Shown here: positions 1,818-12,347 of the stretch, piece after piece | Layout of the letters: each line of letters opens with the position of its first letter | Position numbering within the stretch: position 1 is the first letter of the stretch | From: Chlamydiia bacterium | GTDB lineage: Bacteria; Chlamydiota; Chlamydiia; Chlamydiales; Rhabdochlamydiaceae | Length of the DNA stretch: 14,508 bases | Direction: 5' to 3' | NCBI GenBank assembly: GCA_963804085.1 | Contig: CAWDOQ010000007.1 | Span: forward strand, 1-14,508 | Notes under the pieces: generated by a model | The model's input: only the letters and a program-made list of their open reading frames with translations | Told to the model about the DNA's origin: nothing | Database searches by the model: none | Program-made: the position numbers and the translations under genes

Positions 1818-2329
1818 ATCCACCCTCTTTTTTTGAAAGCATCTGCTTGAGCTTGTAATTGCCTATCCAAAAGTGCGCAAGCTACAGAAAGTAGAGCTAG
1901 CACCCCATTCGCTGCTATCTCAGGAATTTCTTCCTGCTTAGAAGAGACACTTTTTGCCCAAAGAGCAAACTGGTCTGCTGTAGTAAACCTCTGATCTATG
2001 AGTTTCTGACGGCAAAGATCAGTACGTTTCCAAATCTCCATTCCTCTCTGCCTCAGAAAATCCTCATAATCTAGCTTCAACTCTTCCAAGCTAGCTCGTG
2101 CAACGTTCGTCAGTTTAAGCTCTGTTTTTTTCGAAGTTCCCGAAGCTTGACTGCCTTCCGCAATGTTCTGCACTCCCGAGCGAGCAGCTTGCACCATCTG
2201 ATCATGCGTGCGGCTATTTTTAGCAATAAATTTGTCGCAAAAGCGTACAGTAATGTCATAGATCAGCTGCGCCAGCTGAAATGATTTTAAATTCCGATAG
2301 CCACCATGTTTAGCAATCAACTTTTCCAT
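1765..2329 (-). CDS. Four-helix-bundle protein (23S rRNA IVS protein-like) with a four-helix-bundle suffix domain; one extra base in an A7 run
   Basis: Motifs GGYRNLKSFQ, RTHDQMVQAARSGVQNIAEGS and TELKLTNVARASLEELKLDYEDFLRQRG. Removing one A from the A7 run (T7 at 1828-1834 on +) restores AFKKEGGFTERLYRVRKEPQKRWT* with the stop at 1765-1767. Confidence 0.85.
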
Positions 2330-3075: not shown

Positions 3076-3300
3076 CTCGGCTAACTCGCCCCTAAGAGCC
3101 ACTTGCAAAAATCCCCGCCCCAGAAAAATCGAAGATTTTGAGTCAGTTTGCTGGGGCTGGCAGCAGCCCGAATCCCGCCATCGGGGACATACTCGAGGAG
3201 AGTAGGACCCGATGGCCGGACAGCAAAATGGCTCAAAAGGGCGATTTTGCTGGGCGGGAATTTTTGCAAGTGGCTCTGAAGGGGCGAGATTGCGCTCGAG
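3076..3300. mobile_element. Long nested palindromic element (MITE-like, resembling Rickettsia palindromic elements)
   Basis: Imperfect ~75-bp arms at 3076-3153 and 3221-3300. Core ends are AGAGCCACTTGCAAAAAT (from 3095) and ATTTTTGCAAGTGGCTCT (to 3277). There is an inner hairpin CCATCGGG..TACTC..GAGTA..CCCGATGG. No credible ORF. Confidence 0.7.
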
Positions 3301-3900: not shown

Positions 3901-4271
3901 ATGCTATTCTCGTAATTTACAAGGGAGCGATATGCCTGTTAAGATCATTGAGCAACAAGTCCCAAGAGCAGACCTGCAAGATCTGGAACTGAAAAATAAG
4001 CATGGCGCTTTAGTAAAAGCGGTTGTCGATATTGAGCGCGCAATTATGGTTGCGGGAATGACCATGCATTCGGATGGAGAGGAGATCCTCTTAGAGAACG
4101 GGTGAAACAAGCTGATCTCTGGGGAATTAATTTATATCTGCAGCAATCTGATGATGAGTGGATCGAATACGATTCTATGATCAACCTTAGGCCTTCTCAA
4201 GGCAATGATTCTCGAGGAGTAGACGATCCAGCGATCCGCCAAAAAATTCAAGAAATCGTCAATCGATTAGT
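3901..4271 (+). repeat. Direct repeat copy 1 (~371 bp) covering the DUF5674-like gene and its leader
   Basis: Near-identical to 4926-5297. Visible differences are GGGTGAAAC vs GGGTCAAAAC (~4104) and AATCGATTAGT vs AATCAATTAGT at the end. Confidence 0.95.
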
Positions 4272-4925: not shown

Positions 4926-5297
4926 ATGCTATTCTCGTAATTTACAAGGGAGCGATATGCCTGTTAAGATCATTGAGCAACAAGTCCCAAGAGCAGACCT
5001 GCAAGATCTGGAACTGAAAAATAAGCATGGCGCTTTAGTAAAAGCGGTTGTCGATATTGAGCGCGCAATTATGGTTGCGGGAATGACCATGCATTCGGAT
5101 GGAGAGGAGATCCTCTTAGAGAACGGGTCAAAACAAGCTGATCTCTGGGGAATTAATTTATATCTGCAGCAATCTGATGATGAGTGGATCGAATACGATT
5201 CTATGATCAACCTTAGGCCTTCTCAAGGCAATGATTCTCGAGGAGTAGACGATCCAGCGATCCGCCAAAAAATTCAAGAAATCGTCAATCAATTAGT
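4926..5297 (+). repeat. Direct repeat copy 2
   Basis: Matches 3901-4271 at an offset of 1025, or 1026 after the indel. Confidence 0.95.
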
Positions 5298-5713: not shown

Positions 5714-6760
<1,047 letters not shown>

Positions 6761-6783
6761 TTACGGCAATCGGAATCACGATC

Positions 6784-6824
6784 ACGTGCCCGTGTGCGTG
6801 CCCGTGCCCGTGCCCGAATTTTTT
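6784..6824 (+). repeat. Left arm of a 41-bp inverted repeat (GTGCCC tandem units)
   Basis: ACGTGCCCGTGTGCGTGCCCGTGCCCGTGCCCGAATTTTTT pairs with 7175-7215. Confidence 0.95.
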
Positions 6825-6833
6825 GGAGATATA

Positions 6834-7253
6834 ATGTTTGATCATGAAAAGCTCGATGTTTATAAGACAGCTATCGAATTTGTTGTTTTGTCAGGTCAAA
6901 TTATAGAACATATGCCCAGAGGCAAAAATTATTTGGCTGATCAGTTACAACGCGCCAGCTCTTCGATTCCTTTGAATATTGCCGAAGGGGCTGGTGAATT
7001 TTCAATCAATGAAAAATGCAGATTTTATCGCATGGCAAAGCGTTCTGCAACAGAGTCTGCTGGAATCCTGGATGTCTGCAAAAGTCTACAATCGATTGAA
7101 GAGAACCAATACAACGAGGGACGAAAACTATTATTGAGAATTGTCTCTATGTTAATCAAGATGGCACAAAAAAGAGAAGATTCGGGCACGGGCACGGGCA
7201 CGCGCGCGGGCACGTATCAGGAGACTTGGGAGACATCTGACAGAAATGGTTGA
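6834..7253 (+). CDS. Four-helix-bundle protein (23S rRNA intervening-sequence protein / Avd-like family)
   Basis: GGAG RBS at 6825-6828 and ATG at 6834. Motifs FDHEKLDVY, LADQLQRASSSIPLNIAEGAG and KCRFYRMAKRSATE. The GTGTGTRAGT tail is encoded by the right repeat arm, and the stop overlaps the pknD start. Confidence 0.92.
   Translation: MFDHEKLDVYKTAIEFVVLSGQIIEHMPRGKNYLADQLQRASSSIPLNIAEGAGEFSINEKCRFYRMAKRSATESAGILDVCKSLQSIEENQYNEGRKLLLRIVSMLIKMAQKREDSGTGTGTRAGTYQETWETSDRNG
7175..7215 (+). repeat. Right arm of the 41-bp inverted repeat (GGGCAC tandem units)
   Basis: AGAAGATTCGGGCACGGGCACGGGCACGCGCGCGGGCACGT forms 37 Watson-Crick and 4 G-U pairs with the left arm. Confidence 0.95.
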
Positions 7254-10020
7254 AAAAATAGGACGCTACGAAATTGTACGCAGTTTGGGCAAGGGCGGGA
7301 TGGGCGAAGTCTTCCTCGCGCGCGATCCTGCCTGCGGGCGTCTGGTCGCGGTCAAAAAGATCAGGCCCGATCTTGCCCAGCATAAGAGCATACAAGAGCG
7401 CTTTTTAAAAGAGGCGAAGATCGCCGCACAGCTGACTCACCCTTCGATCATCCCTATCTACACGATCGATGAGGAGAACTGTTTTTATACGATGCCTTAC
7501 GTCGAGGGCGAGACACTCAAAGAGATTTTAAGAATTGTCTACAAACAACAAAAAAGCGGCAAGATCACCCATCCGATCGGCTCTTCGATCTTAGCGCTTG
7601 TACGCGTCTTCTGGAGCGTCTGTCAAGCGATCGCCTACTCCCATTCTAAAGGTATTCTACATAGAGATCTGAAACCAGAAAACATCATCGTTGGAAAGTA
7701 TGGCGAAGTGATGCTCCTCGACTGGGGCCTTGCCGACTTTATCTTCGGGCAGCAAGAGGAGTTGACACTCCCCTCTCTTTCAAATGGAAATCTCACACAC
7801 CCGGGAAAAATCCCGGGCACGATCGCCTACATGGCACCGGAGCGGGCTCATGGAGAAAAATCGAGTGTGCTCACCGACATCTATGCCCTGGGCGTCATTC
7901 TCTACTACCTACTCACTCTCCACCTTCCTTTTGAGCGCACCACACTAAAAGAGTTCCGCAAAGAGATGAAAGAGGAGAAGCTGATCGATCCTACCGAGAT
8001 CGCTCCTTATCGCGACATTCCTTTACAGCTCTCCGAAATCGCCAAAAAGTGTTTGGCTCAAGACAAAACGGGGCGCTACCAAAAAATGTCTGAGCTCACG
8101 AGCGAACTGGAAAACTTCATCGAGGGAAGGCCCGAGTGGCTGACAGCTGCTCGTCTAAACATCGACAAAAAAGAGGATTGGGAGTTTCAGGAAAATATTC
8201 TAATGGCCAAGCACATCGCCATCACACGCAGCCCTGACGTGATGGAGTGGGTCAACCTGATGATCTGTAAAAACTCGTTTGCCGGAAACATCAAGATCCA
8301 GACTAAAGTCCGCCTTTTAGAAGGCGGCCAAGGCGTGGGCATTCTACTTGGCATTCCCGAAGCACAAGAGCGCATCGGCTTTGGCGATGGCTACTCGCTC
8401 TGGATTTCAGAAAAAGATCTGGCTATGACCAAACTCATTCGCTCTCACGTAGAGCTGATGAGCATTCCAGAGAGCGGTCTAGAAAAAGAAAAGTGGTACA
8501 ACGTGCGCATCGAGATGGTGGAAAACCATCTACGTTTTTATTTGGACGATCTCTTGCAGTGTCACTACATCAGCCAGCTGCCGCTTACAGGCACACACGT
8601 GGGACTGCTCTTCCGCGATGCAGACTTCGAAATGCAGGAGCTAGAGATTTTTGTCGGCAGCCAAAACGTGATGATCAACTGTCTCGCTATCCCCGACGCC
8701 TTTTTGGCAAATAAGCTCTATAAAAAAGCGCTCATCGAATACCGACGCATCGGCTACAGCTTTCCCGGAAGAGCCGAGGGAAGAGAGGCTCTATTTCGAG
8801 CAGGCATCACTCTTTTAGAGCAAGGGATCAATGAGACAAAAAAACTGACAAAACAGAGGCTCTGGCTTGCAGCATTAGAAGAATTTGGCAAGCTGCGTCC
8901 CACACCGGGCGCTCCCTTAGAGTATTTAGGAAAATCGCTCGTCTACAAAGCGTGGCAAGAGACCGATGAGGAGATCAAGTGCTTAGAGCTTGCCATTCGC
9001 AAATACCCGCACCACCCGCTCCTCTTTATTTTAATCGAAGAGATCGTCTTTCGCTTGCACGAGAGCTCGCTCTACAACAGATATGCAGCTTATCAGCTCG
9101 CGCTTTTGGCTTTAAGACACCTGCCGCAAATATTTCACAGCCCGGATAACGCAAAGCTTCTTACAAGCTTGCAAACCCATCGAGAGCCCCTCTTTTTTCT
9201 AGAAAGGCCTCTAGAGAAGCCTCAAGAGTCTGAAAAAAACACAGCTATGGCAATTGAGCTCGCTTTTTGGCTGGCAAAACCAATCACACTTATCGAAATC
9301 ATCGAACAGAGCACCACTTCTCCCCTTCTTGTCGGAAATGCACTCTCAGCTCTTTTGCAGCTAGGCTGCACAAAGGCAGTGCAAGAGTGCCTTTCTTTTG
9401 TTAAAGTCGAGGAGAGCCTCTTTTCGCTCGCTCTTTTGGCACACAAGCAGCCCACTAAAGCCCTTGCTCTTTTCTTTGCAAAAGCCAAACACCCCTACAC
9501 GTTTGCAGAGCTGCGCGCGCTCTTTTCTATCCTCATGACACTGCTCGACAAAGGAAAGCCAGGGCAGATTTTGCACTATGTAAATGCCATCTCGGATAGC
9601 CCAGAGCTGGACAGCTTGCTTTTAAGAGCTCTTTTACTTAGCGCCTTTTGGGAAGAGGCGAAGCAAATATTTGAAAAGTACCCCATAGAAGAGCTCTCGC
9701 AAGAAAGTAGTCCTTTGTACTATCTTTTTGGCTGCTGGTTATGGGCAACAGAAGGAGAGACGATCGGGCGGGCCCACTTTTCGGGAGTATCCGAACTTAC
9801 TACCCCGCCCACCTCAGCCCTGCTCGCCCACTACGTAAACGGGAAGATCAACCTAAAAAAAGGGTGGATCGAGAAGGCCTTTTACTGGGAAAAGATCGAA
9901 CTTTTGCGCCAGCTCGTCCTCTTCTACCAATGCCAGAGCAGAGGTAAAGAGGCGGCACGTATGCAGAAAAGATTGAACAAAGAGTTAAAACATGTCTCAT
10001 CTCTCTATACCTCTCCCTGA
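7246..10020 (+). CDS. pknD: Hanks-type Ser/Thr protein kinase, chlamydial PknD-like
   Basis: LGKGGMGEV, VAVKK, HRDLKPEN, DWG, GTIAYMAPE and DIYALG motifs. 924 aa with a long C-terminal region (CLAIPDAFLA, YRRIGYSFPGRAEGREA, GAPLEYLGKSLVY) as in chlamydial PknD. Confidence 0.9.
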   Translation: MVEKIGRYEIVRSLGKGGMGEVFLARDPACGRLVAVKKIRPDLAQHKSIQERFLKEAKIAAQLTHPSIIPIYTIDEENCFYTMPYVEGETLKEILRIVYKQQKSGKITHPIGSSILALVRVFWSVCQAIAYSHSKGILHRDLKPENIIVGKYGEVMLLDWGLADFIFGQQEELTLPSLSNGNLTHPGKIPGTIAYMAPERAHGEKSSVLTDIYALGVILYYLLTLHLPFERTTLKEFRKEMKEEKLIDPTEIAPYRDIPLQLSEIAKKCLAQDKTGRYQKMSELTSELENFIEGRPEWLTAARLNIDKKEDWEFQENILMAKHIAITRSPDVMEWVNLMICKNSFAGNIKIQTKVRLLEGGQGVGILLGIPEAQERIGFGDGYSLWISEKDLAMTKLIRSHVELMSIPESGLEKEKWYNVRIEMVENHLRFYLDDLLQCHYISQLPLTGTHVGLLFRDADFEMQELEIFVGSQNVMINCLAIPDAFLANKLYKKALIEYRRIGYSFPGRAEGREALFRAGITLLEQGINETKKLTKQRLWLAALEEFGKLRPTPGAPLEYLGKSLVYKAWQETDEEIKCLELAIRKYPHHPLLFILIEEIVFRLHESSLYNRYAAYQLALLALRHLPQIFHSPDNAKLLTSLQTHREPLFFLERPLEKPQESEKNTAMAIELAFWLAKPITLIEIIEQSTTSPLLVGNALSALLQLGCTKAVQECLSFVKVEESLFSLALLAHKQPTKALALFFAKAKHPYTFAELRALFSILMTLLDKGKPGQILHYVNAISDSPELDSLLLRALLLSAFWEEAKQIFEKYPIEELSQESSPLYYLFGCWLWATEGETIGRAHFSGVSELTTPPTSALLAHYVNGKINLKKGWIEKAFYWEKIELLRQLVLFYQCQSRGKEAARMQKRLNKELKHVSSLYTSP

Positions 10021-11210: not shown

Positions 11211-11849
11211 TTATTGTACGATACAGTCCAGGAGCTCGCCTACAGCTTCGATTGTCGCCACATGCCCCTCCATCACAGCCTCTCTCAGAACAGCTTTATA
11301 ACTTTGATTTTCTAATTTAACGAGGTCAGAACATCTTTTGCAGATGGGTTGCCAAACCAGATCGTTTTCTGCATAAGTGCGCCAAAGTTTACAAGTTTGA
11401 GTAACCTGTGCAATTTCTTTTGGTTGCAAGAATGAGAAAGAGTGAATCCATATGTTCTTTATTCCTAGTGTGTCTGTTTGAACAACAGGCGTCATTTTGT
11501 CTAAAACGAGCCAGTCAGCTACTTGTGCGTTGCTTGCGGCACTATCGGGATTGAACAATATGGAGCCTGCTCTAACAAATGTGCCTAGAAGCGTGCACGG
11601 AAGCACTAAAAGCAAAGAAATCGTAAGGATTACGATCCGTACGGCTAAATTTTGACAACAGGGTTCTGCATTTTCGATGGGAGTGACGACATTTCGCAAA
11701 ATGTCGACATTAAAGCTGCAACCCGCGCGTGAATCTAAAGCCGCATTCAGAAGGACGTGCAGAGGTGCAAAAAGTATCCGGCTTGCAAATTGATCAGCAT
11801 AGTCATTGTTTTCTATACTCGTTGTAAAAAATGCTTCTATTTTTGTCAT
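11211..11849 (-). CDS. F-box domain protein with a central hydrophobic hairpin (putative host-directed effector)
   Basis: In-frame ATG at 11849; the upstream part of ORF ..12245 overlaps repeats. Hydrophobic LAVRIVILTISLLLVLPCTLLGTFVRAGSILF, then F-box-like IWIHSFSFLQPKEIAQVTQTCKLWRTYAENDLVW. Confidence 0.78.
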   Translation of the reverse strand: MTKIEAFFTTSIENNDYADQFASRILFAPLHVLLNAALDSRAGCSFNVDILRNVVTPIENAEPCCQNLAVRIVILTISLLLVLPCTLLGTFVRAGSILFNPDSAASNAQVADWLVLDKMTPVVQTDTLGIKNIWIHSFSFLQPKEIAQVTQTCKLWRTYAENDLVWQPICKRCSDLVKLENQSYKAVLREAVMEGHVATIEAVGELLDCIVQ

Positions 11850-11980
11850 AAAATTAATTTTTAATGCATCAAATTTTACAACAATTGGCGTTAAATAAAC
11901 AGCGAAAAGATGTTTTAAAACACAAGCAGAAGCCTCTGTACTGGAAAAAATTTGGAAGACTTTGGAAGACAAAGAGTTAA

Positions 11981-12016
11981 AGCAGGATGGCCAGGATAAG
12001 CAGGATGAAGAAAGAC
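11981..12016. repeat. CAGGAT triad (9-nt period)
   Basis: CAGGAT at 11983, 11992 and 12001, followed by GAAGAAAGAC. Inverted copy of 5656-5691. Confidence 0.75.
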
Positions 12017-12070
12017 AGACAAAAATCATGTTTTTTCTTTCTGTTCTCTTAATCACGAAATGGTAAAAAA

Positions 12071-12347
12071 CTGCGAAGCAGGGATAAGTCGTGGTGGAGA
12101 AAAACGGACAGGGGCTTAACCGCAAAGCGGTAAAAAGCTGCGAAGCAGCGACAGGTGCTAGCCGGGGGTGACGAAGGAACCCCCGGTACGAACCCCCAAC
12201 AAATAGAGCCACGAAGTGGCGACACTCACATAAAAGTTTCACCACTTACGTGGTTCTTTTGTTGGATTCTAACCGTAGGTTCCTTTCGGTCACCTACGTC
12301 TATCACTGTGTAGCCACTACGTGGCAAATCACCGCTTCGCGGTTAAG
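12071..12347. repeat. Composite palindromic REP/BIME-like element built from mini-hairpins
   Basis: Outer inverted repeat CTTAACCGCAAAGCGGT (12115-12131) / ACCGCTTCGCGGTTAAG (12331-12347). Inner paired hairpins at 12159-12187 and 12272-12302. Triloop hairpins include GCTGC-GAA-GCAGC, GCCAC-GAA-GTGGC and GCCAC-TAC-GTGGC. Confidence 0.8.

Follow-up and report, generated by a model that had tools for sequence, protein, structure and literature searches.

The 14,508-nt stretch of DNA analysed here (the window) comprises positions 1 to 14,508 of contig CAWDOQ010000007.1 in assembly GCA_963804085.1, from a Chlamydiia bacterium of the Rhabdochlamydiaceae, and carries, between the genes trpS and pknD, a four-helix-bundle (4HB) protein gene of the family PF05635 enclosed in the loop of a long palindrome. 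Positions 6784-7215, referred to below as the window cassette, are probably a copy, bearing an open reading frame (ORF), of a mobile palindromic family with inverted arms of 6-nt tandem repeats and a PF05635 gene in the loop. Tandem-repeat palindromic mobile elements with a 4HB cargo would be an undescribed family. The window cassette is an insertion into the short divergent spacer between trpS and pknD, that is, into the pknD leader, in this lineage, with each of the three 4HB paralogues of the genome sitting between arms that are also found as many ORF-less hairpins. The 4HB gene and the arms recur together across phyla, and in another genome a tandem-repeat-armed PF05635 element is a classical intervening sequence (IVS) of 23S rRNA.

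This reading ties together three separate puzzles, namely the origin of rRNA IVSs and their S23p ORF, the function of the large and patchily distributed PF05635/TIGR02436 family, and the origin of inverted arrays of 6-7-nt repeats, because outside rRNA the PF05635 gene is usually found between such arrays in several phyla, and the arrays multiply gene-less in the same genomes. It also suggests that the spacers holding these hairpins, including operon spacers and leaders such as that of pknD, were shaped by a selfish element rather than by regulation.

Structure of the window cassette

A diagonal scan of the window pairs 6784-6824 with 7175-7215 over 41 positions without a gap, with Watson-Crick pairs at 37 of these and the remaining four (6793:7206, 6795:7204, 6820:7179, and 6823:7176) all being T:G on the + strand, whilst a repeat search returns a Watson-Crick core of 39 nt that is 92% complementary, with 354 nt separating the arms. 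RNA folding of 6770-7230 gives -174.4 kcal/mol for the + strand (z = -8.19, equalled by 0 of 100 shuffles), in a structure closed by the 41-position stem, and -148.5 kcal/mol (z = -6.86) for the - strand, the + strand fold being the more stable by 26 kcal/mol. Three outer pairs, 6780-6782 with 7216-7218, extend the + strand stem beyond a 1-nt bulge at 6783. Sequence, diagonal scan, and fold thus confirm the 41-bp gap-free stem and four U-G positions described in a previous examination of the sequence by eye (the original prediction), and the both-strand fold that it had proposed as a check also reproduces the additional GAT/ATC pairs it placed past the bulge. Its assignment of the ribosome binding site to the first unpaired base, 6825, and of an ORF running through the right arm to overlap the pknD ATG, is likewise borne out (Table 1).

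Table 1. Coordinates of the window cassette, its parts, and the two neighbouring genes
Feature	Position	Strand	Basis and remarks
trpS (tryptophan--tRNA ligase), left neighbour, divergent from the cassette	5714..6715	-	TIGR00233 258 bits; PF00579
Left part of the old trpS-pknD spacer	6716..6783		6780-6782 pair with 7216-7218; ATC at 6781-6783 recurs at 7216-7218
Left palindrome arm, five 6-nt repeats with CG in phase (GTGCCC type), inner end T-rich	6784..6824	+	Sequence, fold, scans
Shine-Dalgarno-like GGAGA of the 4HB gene, from the first base past the arm	6825..6829	+	Unpaired or only locally paired in the fold
4HB gene, 139 aa, ATG at 6834	6834..7253	+	PF05635 82.5 bits (cut-off 33.8); TIGR02436 76.5 bits (cut-off 24)
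Right palindrome arm, GGGCAC-type repeats, translated ...SGTGTGTRAGT	7175..7215	+	Sequence, fold, scans
Right part of the old spacer, with two GGAGAC motifs 5' of the pknD ATG	7216..7245	+	Sequence
pknD (Ser/Thr kinase), right neighbour, start overlapping the 4HB stop by 8 nt	7246..10020	+	NF009651 853 bits

The stem and the gene that it encloses are not an assembly artefact, since an allele on contig C19 that is 98.4% identical to the window copy has both arms identical to those of the window, and an independent metagenome contig from another run spans 6300-7210 unbroken. In the C19 allele (C19:343300-344400, matching window 6600-7400) one base is inserted at 7129 and two are deleted at 7168-7169. 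With these changes the 4HB frame stays open into pknD and reaches 1121 aa; they could be true variants or homopolymer errors.

The left arm ends just 9 nt before the 4HB ATG, which leaves no space there for a promoter of the gene's own; a promoter serving both this gene and pknD would have to sit in 6716-6783 or in the left arm, with transcription probably running on into pknD. A promoter scan found no + strand promoter-like site. The arms do not qualify as an intrinsic terminator, lying 350 nt apart, with the terminator scan giving only a weak 5-pair site inside the left arm.

The 4HB protein scores above both of its family cut-offs (Table 1), and its residues 3-85 match the sequence of PDB entry 2gsc_A with an E-value of 3.4e-8; a pentameric ring is reported for a solved PF05635 member (PMC4990558). 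The family is under purifying selection, with a median dN/dS of 0.125 over the 117 usable pairs of 780, and broken 4HB genes are found in the relative G006 (a TGA stop) and in an rRNA copy in G083 (two stops). PADLOC matched neither 4HB-type protein of the window.

The conserved part of the window protein ends near residue 112, with its tail being read from the right arm and the old spacer. The frame continues into the right arm in 13 of 34 cassettes and stops before or at the arm in the other 21, in several of which tblastn matches extend past the stop into dipeptide repeats encoded by the arm. The tail of the window protein looks like the consequence of a lost stop codon, with the overlap with the pknD start a by-product, since the frame commonly runs into the arm and matches extend beyond the stop. 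For annotation, frames reading into the arm explain the dipeptide-repeat tails of many predicted 4HB proteins.

Insertion between trpS and pknD

The trpS loci of 29 related genomes from other genera were compared with that of the window. In 11 of these, trpS and pknD stand next to each other in divergent orientation, 28-224 nt apart as compared with 530 nt in the window, and none of the 29 trpS loci contains a 4HB match (tblastn, E <= 1e-5). Removal of 6784-7215 from the window spacer leaves 98 nt, inside the range of the relatives. A search for sequencing runs that contain the stretch listed no RNA run; four DNA sequencing runs were also compared, and contained no contig joining the flanks over an empty site. 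The original prediction had named empty trpS-pknD sites in relatives as a test of a mobile stem-plus-4HB cassette, and the 11 relatives with short, 4HB-free spacers supply them: the gene is not fixed at this locus, and homologues elsewhere are flanked by inverted tandem repeats that differ from those of the window. As a copy of the element was inserted into the trpS-pknD spacer, the stem is best read as part of the element itself and not as a regulator of pknD.

Two further relatives have trpS-pknD loci that hold other insertions, of 925 and 1339 nt. The trpS-pknD spacer has received different palindromic insertions in different lineages. In the relative G016 (locus L016), the 224-nt spacer between the two genes is a long hairpin of unrelated sequence.

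Paralogous cassettes and ORF-less hairpins

The source genome (G000) is a 2.13-Mb assembly in 24 contigs and is 91% complete. A profile search of it gives six PF05635 matches: the window gene with its C19 allele, two paralogues of full length on contig C10 (loci L001, with its 4HB gene at 1444-1839 of the locus, and L004, with its 4HB gene at 1456-1836), and a weaker pair formed by window 2075-2287 and its C19 counterpart. Both C10 paralogues sit between inverted arms, and their ORFs stop short of the right arm. The L001 cassette has 78-nt arms and is flanked by an ABC ATPase gene and a permease gene, and the L004 cassette has 27-nt perfect arms inside a stem of ~54 nt, with two co-directional neighbours, a GTPase-like ORF and an endonuclease III-like ORF, which we take, from reading by eye, to be mnmE and nth. 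In alignment, the three paralogues are 58-68% identical and their arm sequences differ.

Probing the genome with 24-mers from the three cassettes, allowing up to three substitutions, locates the arm families at 99, 61, and 45 places, with 61 being the count for the left arm of the window cassette, and with 0, 0, and 4 places shared between families, so that three distinct multi-copy families are present. A whole-genome scan for CG-phased hexamer arrays of two arm types found 154 arms in total, forming 57 pairs with 40 arms left unpaired. Loops of 11-83 nt are enclosed by 54 of the pairs, and a 4HB gene by three; the third arm family adds 11 pairs, 10 of them short. The commonest element consists of a 32-nt arm of the L001 cassette type, a 13-nt loop in either orientation, and the complementary arm, with this one conserved loop being present in most short hairpins, and a GTGCCC subtype shares its arms with the window cassette. 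Intermediate loops of 20-83 nt retain purine or pyrimidine tracts resembling the inner arms of L001, and the number of repeats differs among hairpin copies.

Going by crude ORF calls, 41 of the 54 short arm pairs overlap no ORF and 13 do, with the short hairpins being intergenic and mostly within 30 nt of a gene end. The same crude calls give no clear enrichment for a type of spacer, with 28 co-directional, 14 convergent, and 12 divergent among the 54 and a background of 65/17/17%. In soil metagenome runs, depth rises to 326 and 100 over the two arm segments, compared with ~7 elsewhere in the stretch, and some soil metagenome contigs have both arms just 20-35 nt apart.

The same type of array was counted in 41 genomes, those of the source and its relatives, as six in-phase CG dinucleotides (CG followed by four bases, five times, then CG), with the reversed pattern as control. 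The source genome has 121 matches (control 24), followed by G005 with 169 (control 7), G024 with 37 (2), G016 with 12 (2), G006 with 10 (1), G010 with 8 (1), and G013 with 6 (3). G034 also has 6 (control 4), a doubtful case in that its listed matches are not of the GTGCCC type, G036 has 3 against a control of 39, and all other genomes have at most 2. Strong PF05635 matches are present in G000, G001, G005, G006 (with a stop codon), G010, G013, and G024. Of the seven genomes in which the 4HB match is strong, six therefore have an excess of arms; among the other 34 there is one clear case (G016), and 32 have a pattern count of at most 3 or one not above control. Flanking arms are present in all five relatives with an intact 4HB gene, and the abundant hairpins of G005 and G024 bear the arms of the 4HB cassette of that same genome. 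The 4HB cassette of G013 (C6:276986-278046, L124) lies directly 3' of the RNase III gene on the same strand, which may be coincidence.

Homologues in other phyla

From 290 confirmed relatives of the 4HB gene, 79 loci were kept, with 43 coming from one 4.26-Mb chromosome and the other 36 from Chlamydiota, Legionellales and other Gammaproteobacteria, Verrucomicrobiota, Alphaproteobacteria, Myxococcota, and unclassified records. Stems were scored by an ungapped scan that penalises G:T and A:C equally, with a threshold of 15. Flanking inverted tandem repeats, which the original prediction had proposed to look for at homologous loci, are found at 30 of the 36 close homologues with a score of at least 15, and at 28 with at least 20, with arms of 15-105 nt. 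None of 400 random positions in the source genome reaches 15, the maximum being 14. A clean period of 6 is seen in 12 of the 30 arm-flanked homologues, and any period at all in 4 of 1000 random 35-mers. According to Rfam none of the 36 lies in rRNA, and two lie directly 3' of a tRNA gene. Arms of the GTGCCC type accompany related 4HB proteins in Chlamydiota, Gammaproteobacteria, and Verrucomicrobiota.

The 43 loci of the single chromosome (L072-L100 and L102-L115) are copies of a 567-nt unit, present at least 43 times, that contains both arms and the ORF. These copies are 94-99% identical (97-99% with three exceptions), have sharp ends and unrelated flanks, and in some cases lie in tandem, with no common flank evident among the 43. 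A similar small subterminal hairpin is present at each end of the unit, both in direct orientation. In a tree of 4HB proteins, the hosts are interleaved and the three paralogues of the source genome do not cluster, although the tree is poorly resolved, with 8 of 37 inner branches starred, and provides no test of co-evolution between protein and repeat unit.

Additionally, 201 genomes were sampled from the class around a Legionella-like genome, with PF05635 present in 43 of them, counting one unpublished genome whose locus was left out of the 29 analysed. Stems scoring at least 15 flank 19 of the 29 loci, 18 of these having a period of 7. One locus, L153, is the only one of the 29 inside a 23S rRNA gene, and has period-7 arms and an ORF with two stops. 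Among the other class-sample loci, a tRNA gene is found within ~150 nt of the stem in three and further off in two, with no Rfam match at the rest. A load of at least 10 heptamer arrays is seen in 27 of the 42 genomes that have PF05635, compared with 26 of the 157 that lack it (odds ratio 9), a crude count with relatedness and genome size uncontrolled and two unpublished genomes left out. Three cassettes have a tRNA gene at a distance of 10-110 nt from their stem, on its 5' side in L065 and L068 and on its 3' side in L151; these three cassettes would belong to tRNA precursor transcripts.

Mismatch balance and a possible mechanism

The non-canonical positions of the stems divide between G-U and A-C in a ratio of 31:26 for close homologues, 24:25 for class-sample loci, and 26:24 for 41 short hairpins, and short hairpins oriented by co-directional neighbour genes give 17:12 (p = 0.46). 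The original prediction took the strand-specific wobble bias of the window as a sign of selection on a sense-strand stem. However, the 4:0 of the window alone is not significant, and as the counts for the family are balanced it is not evidence of such selection, for which the data on the family give no support either. Of the 41 short hairpins, 17 are perfectly complementary over their outer 26 positions, which fits recent copying or homogenisation between arms.

A 41-bp duplex in a transcript is a textbook substrate for RNase III. We suggest that the 4HB gene would be transcribed from the pknD side of the spacer, with the transcript folding as a hairpin of 41-44 bp. RNase III, which is specific for double strands, may then cut this hairpin as it does in rRNA IVSs, releasing a stem-closed 4HB mRNA and leaving a usable pknD mRNA. 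The 4HB protein, in turn, would be the cognate binder of its own repeat arrays and would be required for the spread or upkeep of the hairpins. Such a scheme could account for the tolerance of these elements in leaders, in operon spacers, beside tRNAs, and in rRNA, because excision would leave the host RNA usable.

Several points weigh against this mechanism or against the cassette being a mobile element. No target-site duplication can be defined and the ends of the element are undefined, with the ATC found on both sides of the window copy allowing two readings, a duplication of 3 bp or a continuation of the stem. Profile searches found no transposase domain in the 4HB gene, no enzyme of movement was identified, and we know of no catalytic activity of the 4HB protein. 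Stems fall below the threshold at 6 of the 36 close homologues and 10 of the 29 class-sample loci, and the upstream neighbour is co-oriented in 21 of 27 cassettes, which is not clearly above the background of 65%. The co-occurrence of gene and arms in the 41 genomes is a description of kin genomes by crude patterns, with no statistical test, and includes two genomes that depart from it: G016, whose assembly is 58% complete, has its 12 arms with no 4HB match, and G001 has a 4HB gene with only one pattern match. The balanced mismatches carry no signal of selection at the RNA level beyond DNA complementarity, and a palindrome acting only as DNA would look identical.

Furthermore, the excision of a stem-closed RNA from the window transcript by RNase III is proposed by analogy with rRNA IVSs, and searches with TIGR02191, PF14622, and PF00035 found no RNase III in the source assembly. 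The missing rnc gene is most likely an assembly gap and not a loss, since RNase III is present in 38 of 40 relatives and the genes neighbouring rnc in two relatives are also missing from the source assembly. Of the other hairpin-rich genomes, G024 (80% complete) likewise has no RNase III match, and G005 has both RNase III and hairpins.

Alternative explanations

The hairpins could instead be independent host repeats, similar to terminators or to repetitive extragenic palindromic (REP) sequences, with the 4HB gene being a selfish gene that homes into their loops and uses the arms as its target. The numerical excess of ORF-less over ORF-bearing hairpins (54 to 3) would be expected of such an arrangement, as would the conserved 13-nt loop that most short hairpins carry in either orientation and the placement of three paralogues in three different arm families. 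Other cargo is also found between tandem-repeat inverted arms in this genome, namely a split GxxExxY gene and a Doc toxin-antidote pair, and insertion sequence (IS) elements that target REP sequences are reported (PMC1525189). However, the gene and arms are found together even where additional arms are few or lacking, with G042, G043, and G045 having pattern counts of 1, 2, and 5, none above control, and the unit multiplied at least 43 times over 567 nt includes the arms as well as the ORF. GTGCCC-type arms travel with related proteins in Chlamydiota, Gammaproteobacteria, and Verrucomicrobiota, and among the relatives the hairpin load follows the presence of the 4HB gene. We therefore regard a homing gene in host-owned hairpins as unlikely.

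A functionless structure at the level of DNA, with slippage expanding the repeats, template switching keeping the arms perfect, and the 4HB gene a passive passenger, is in our view very unlikely. Strand-neutral mismatches, the 17 short hairpins (of 41) whose outer 26 positions are perfectly complementary, repeat numbers that vary between copies, and broken 4HB genes (the TGA stop of G006 and the two stops in the rRNA copy of G083) are all compatible with it, yet a passenger would not be expected to show a dN/dS of 0.125 across hosts, to keep its linkage to the arms through apparent transfers between phyla, or to have each paralogue matched to its own arm family, and 4HB presence co-occurs with repeat load in two separate samples.

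An RNA device selected on the sense strand, which controls pknD or couples its translation to that of the 4HB gene at this locus as the original prediction also proposed, is highly improbable: although all four non-canonical pairs are U-G on the + strand, the + strand fold is better by 26 kcal/mol, the 4HB stop overlaps the pknD ATG, and the 4HB gene is co-oriented with pknD with no space for its own promoter, the relatives have a cassette-free trpS-pknD arrangement, paralogous cassettes lie at unrelated genes, the arms are copies of genome-wide repeat families, the family counts of G-U against A-C are 31:26, 24:25, and 17:12, a frame reading into the arm is common (13/34) and elsewhere tblastn matches run past the stop, as though a stop codon had been lost from the window ORF, the indels of the C19 allele (7129 and 7168-7169) alter the 3' end of the ORF, and pknD has GGAGAC motifs of its own 5' of its ATG.

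Comparison with known systems

The original prediction described the locus as an IVS-like cassette outside rRNA, and this description stands, with a PF05635 gene in a stem-closed loop and no Rfam rRNA match in the window. As in the 23S rRNA IVSs of Leptospira, Coxiella, and others, a PF05635 gene lies in a loop of ~350-450 nt that is closed by inverted repeats at its ends. The IVS of Coxiella, with 28 bp in its terminal stem, is cut by RNase III in vitro and has tandem heptamers beside its ORF (PMC4990558), a likeness to the short tandem repeats found beside the 4HB ORF. In that source, IVSs with S23p ORFs are described only for rRNA, and the Coxiella IVS ORF is described as decaying (PMC4990558), whereas the 4HB ORF family is under purifying selection. 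Unlike an IVS, the window copy lies in an mRNA leader between protein genes, and a position outside rRNA is shared by every one of the 36 close homologues and by 28 of the 29 loci in the class sample. The 23S gene of the source genome itself (C16:20-2796) gives three matches that adjoin one another and contains no large insertion.

The arrangement also resembles that of REP sequences or REPINs and the REP-associated tyrosine transposases (RAYTs), with many short intergenic palindromes, a few genes flanked by the same palindromes in inverted orientation, and a separate repeat family for each gene paralogue. In contrast to a RAYT, the enclosed gene matches PF05635 and not an HUH/Y1 transposase, and each arm consists of 6- or 7-nt units in tandem array in place of the single stem of a REP. 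The source genome also contains the classical RAYT/REP arrangement itself, at C17:57700-58364 (L160), where inverted repeats of 63 nt, with further copies elsewhere in the genome and no relation to the hexamer arms, flank an IS200-like Y1 transposase gene (PF01797, 94.9 bits).

Similarly, long ORF-bearing copies and many short ORF-less copies with common termini recall a MITE (miniature inverted-repeat transposable element) with its autonomous partner, including MITE-like intermediates whose 20-83 nt loops keep inner-arm tracts resembling those of the L001 cassette. Unlike a MITE, the family has no transposase and no defined target-site duplication, and its short element is almost wholly one hairpin. 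PF05635 also covers Avd, the accessory protein of diversity-generating retroelements (DGRs) (PMC10053308). The window cassette differs from Avd and DGRs in that its neighbours are trpS and pknD, with no adjacent reverse transcriptase, and in having inverted tandem arrays and no template/variable pair. To our knowledge, inverted tandem-repeat arms are not part of the description of DGRs.

Some cassette arms of the class sample are G-rich arrays of period 7, and in this they resemble the heptamer arrays of Xanthomonas (PMC4692102), a link that is a lead only. In the main text of that paper, from which the terms 'S23' and 'four-helix' are absent, the arrays are abundant between genes, occur as inverted pairs in Xanthomonas (GGGAATC), often convergent and on opposite strands, and mostly unpaired in Nostoc, and are presented as possible quadruplex formers with no known function (PMC4692102). 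A literature search, which covered few subscription journals, returned no paper placing PF05635 genes between tandem-repeat palindromes outside rRNA. The STRR repeats of cyanobacteria are similar, heptamer-type repeats.

A wider generalisation may be put forward tentatively, in which PF05635 proteins outside DGRs would be the cognate partners of palindromes built from 6-7 nt tandem repeats, a widespread and so far unrecognised selfish class that would be analogous to RAYT-REP pairs but without a known transposase. The rRNA IVSs would then be the subset that has landed in rRNA, and the ORF-less progeny would include abundant unexplained repeats such as the heptamer arrays found as inverted pairs in Xanthomonas, and possibly the STRRs of cyanobacteria.

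Other features of the window and genome

A second 4HB-type ORF of the window, of 283 aa (1487-2338, - strand), matches TIGR02436 with 36.7 bits and the suffix domain TIGR04258 with 35.6 bits, the latter being under its cut-off of 40. This ORF contains inverted repeats of another short tandem unit (1603-1621 with 1725-1743), and on C19 its counterpart is surrounded by inverted repeats of 35-43 nt that are built from a further, different unit.

Two other gene types of the genome are found between inverted arms. At C4:46918-47404 (L158), a GxxExxY gene (TIGR04256) that is split into two ORFs lies within 53-nt inverted arms of another short repeat, with the N-terminus of its protein being read from the arm, making this a second protein family in such a cassette. 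At C23:6964-7870 (L159), inverted repeats of 38 nt enclose a Doc toxin gene together with a putative antidote gene.

The window further contains an element of ~190 nt (3089-3283) with 39-nt inverted ends that are 85% complementary, which recurs with 85-97% identity at no fewer than eight other places in the genome (on C8, three times on C10, and on C16, C17, and C19) and looks like a separate miniature repeat family. Positions 3901-4271 and 4926-5297 form a 372-nt direct repeat with 99.2% identity, and an ORF of 344 aa on the - strand (11211-12245) has an F-box-like domain (PF12937, 32.4 bits) of eukaryote type.

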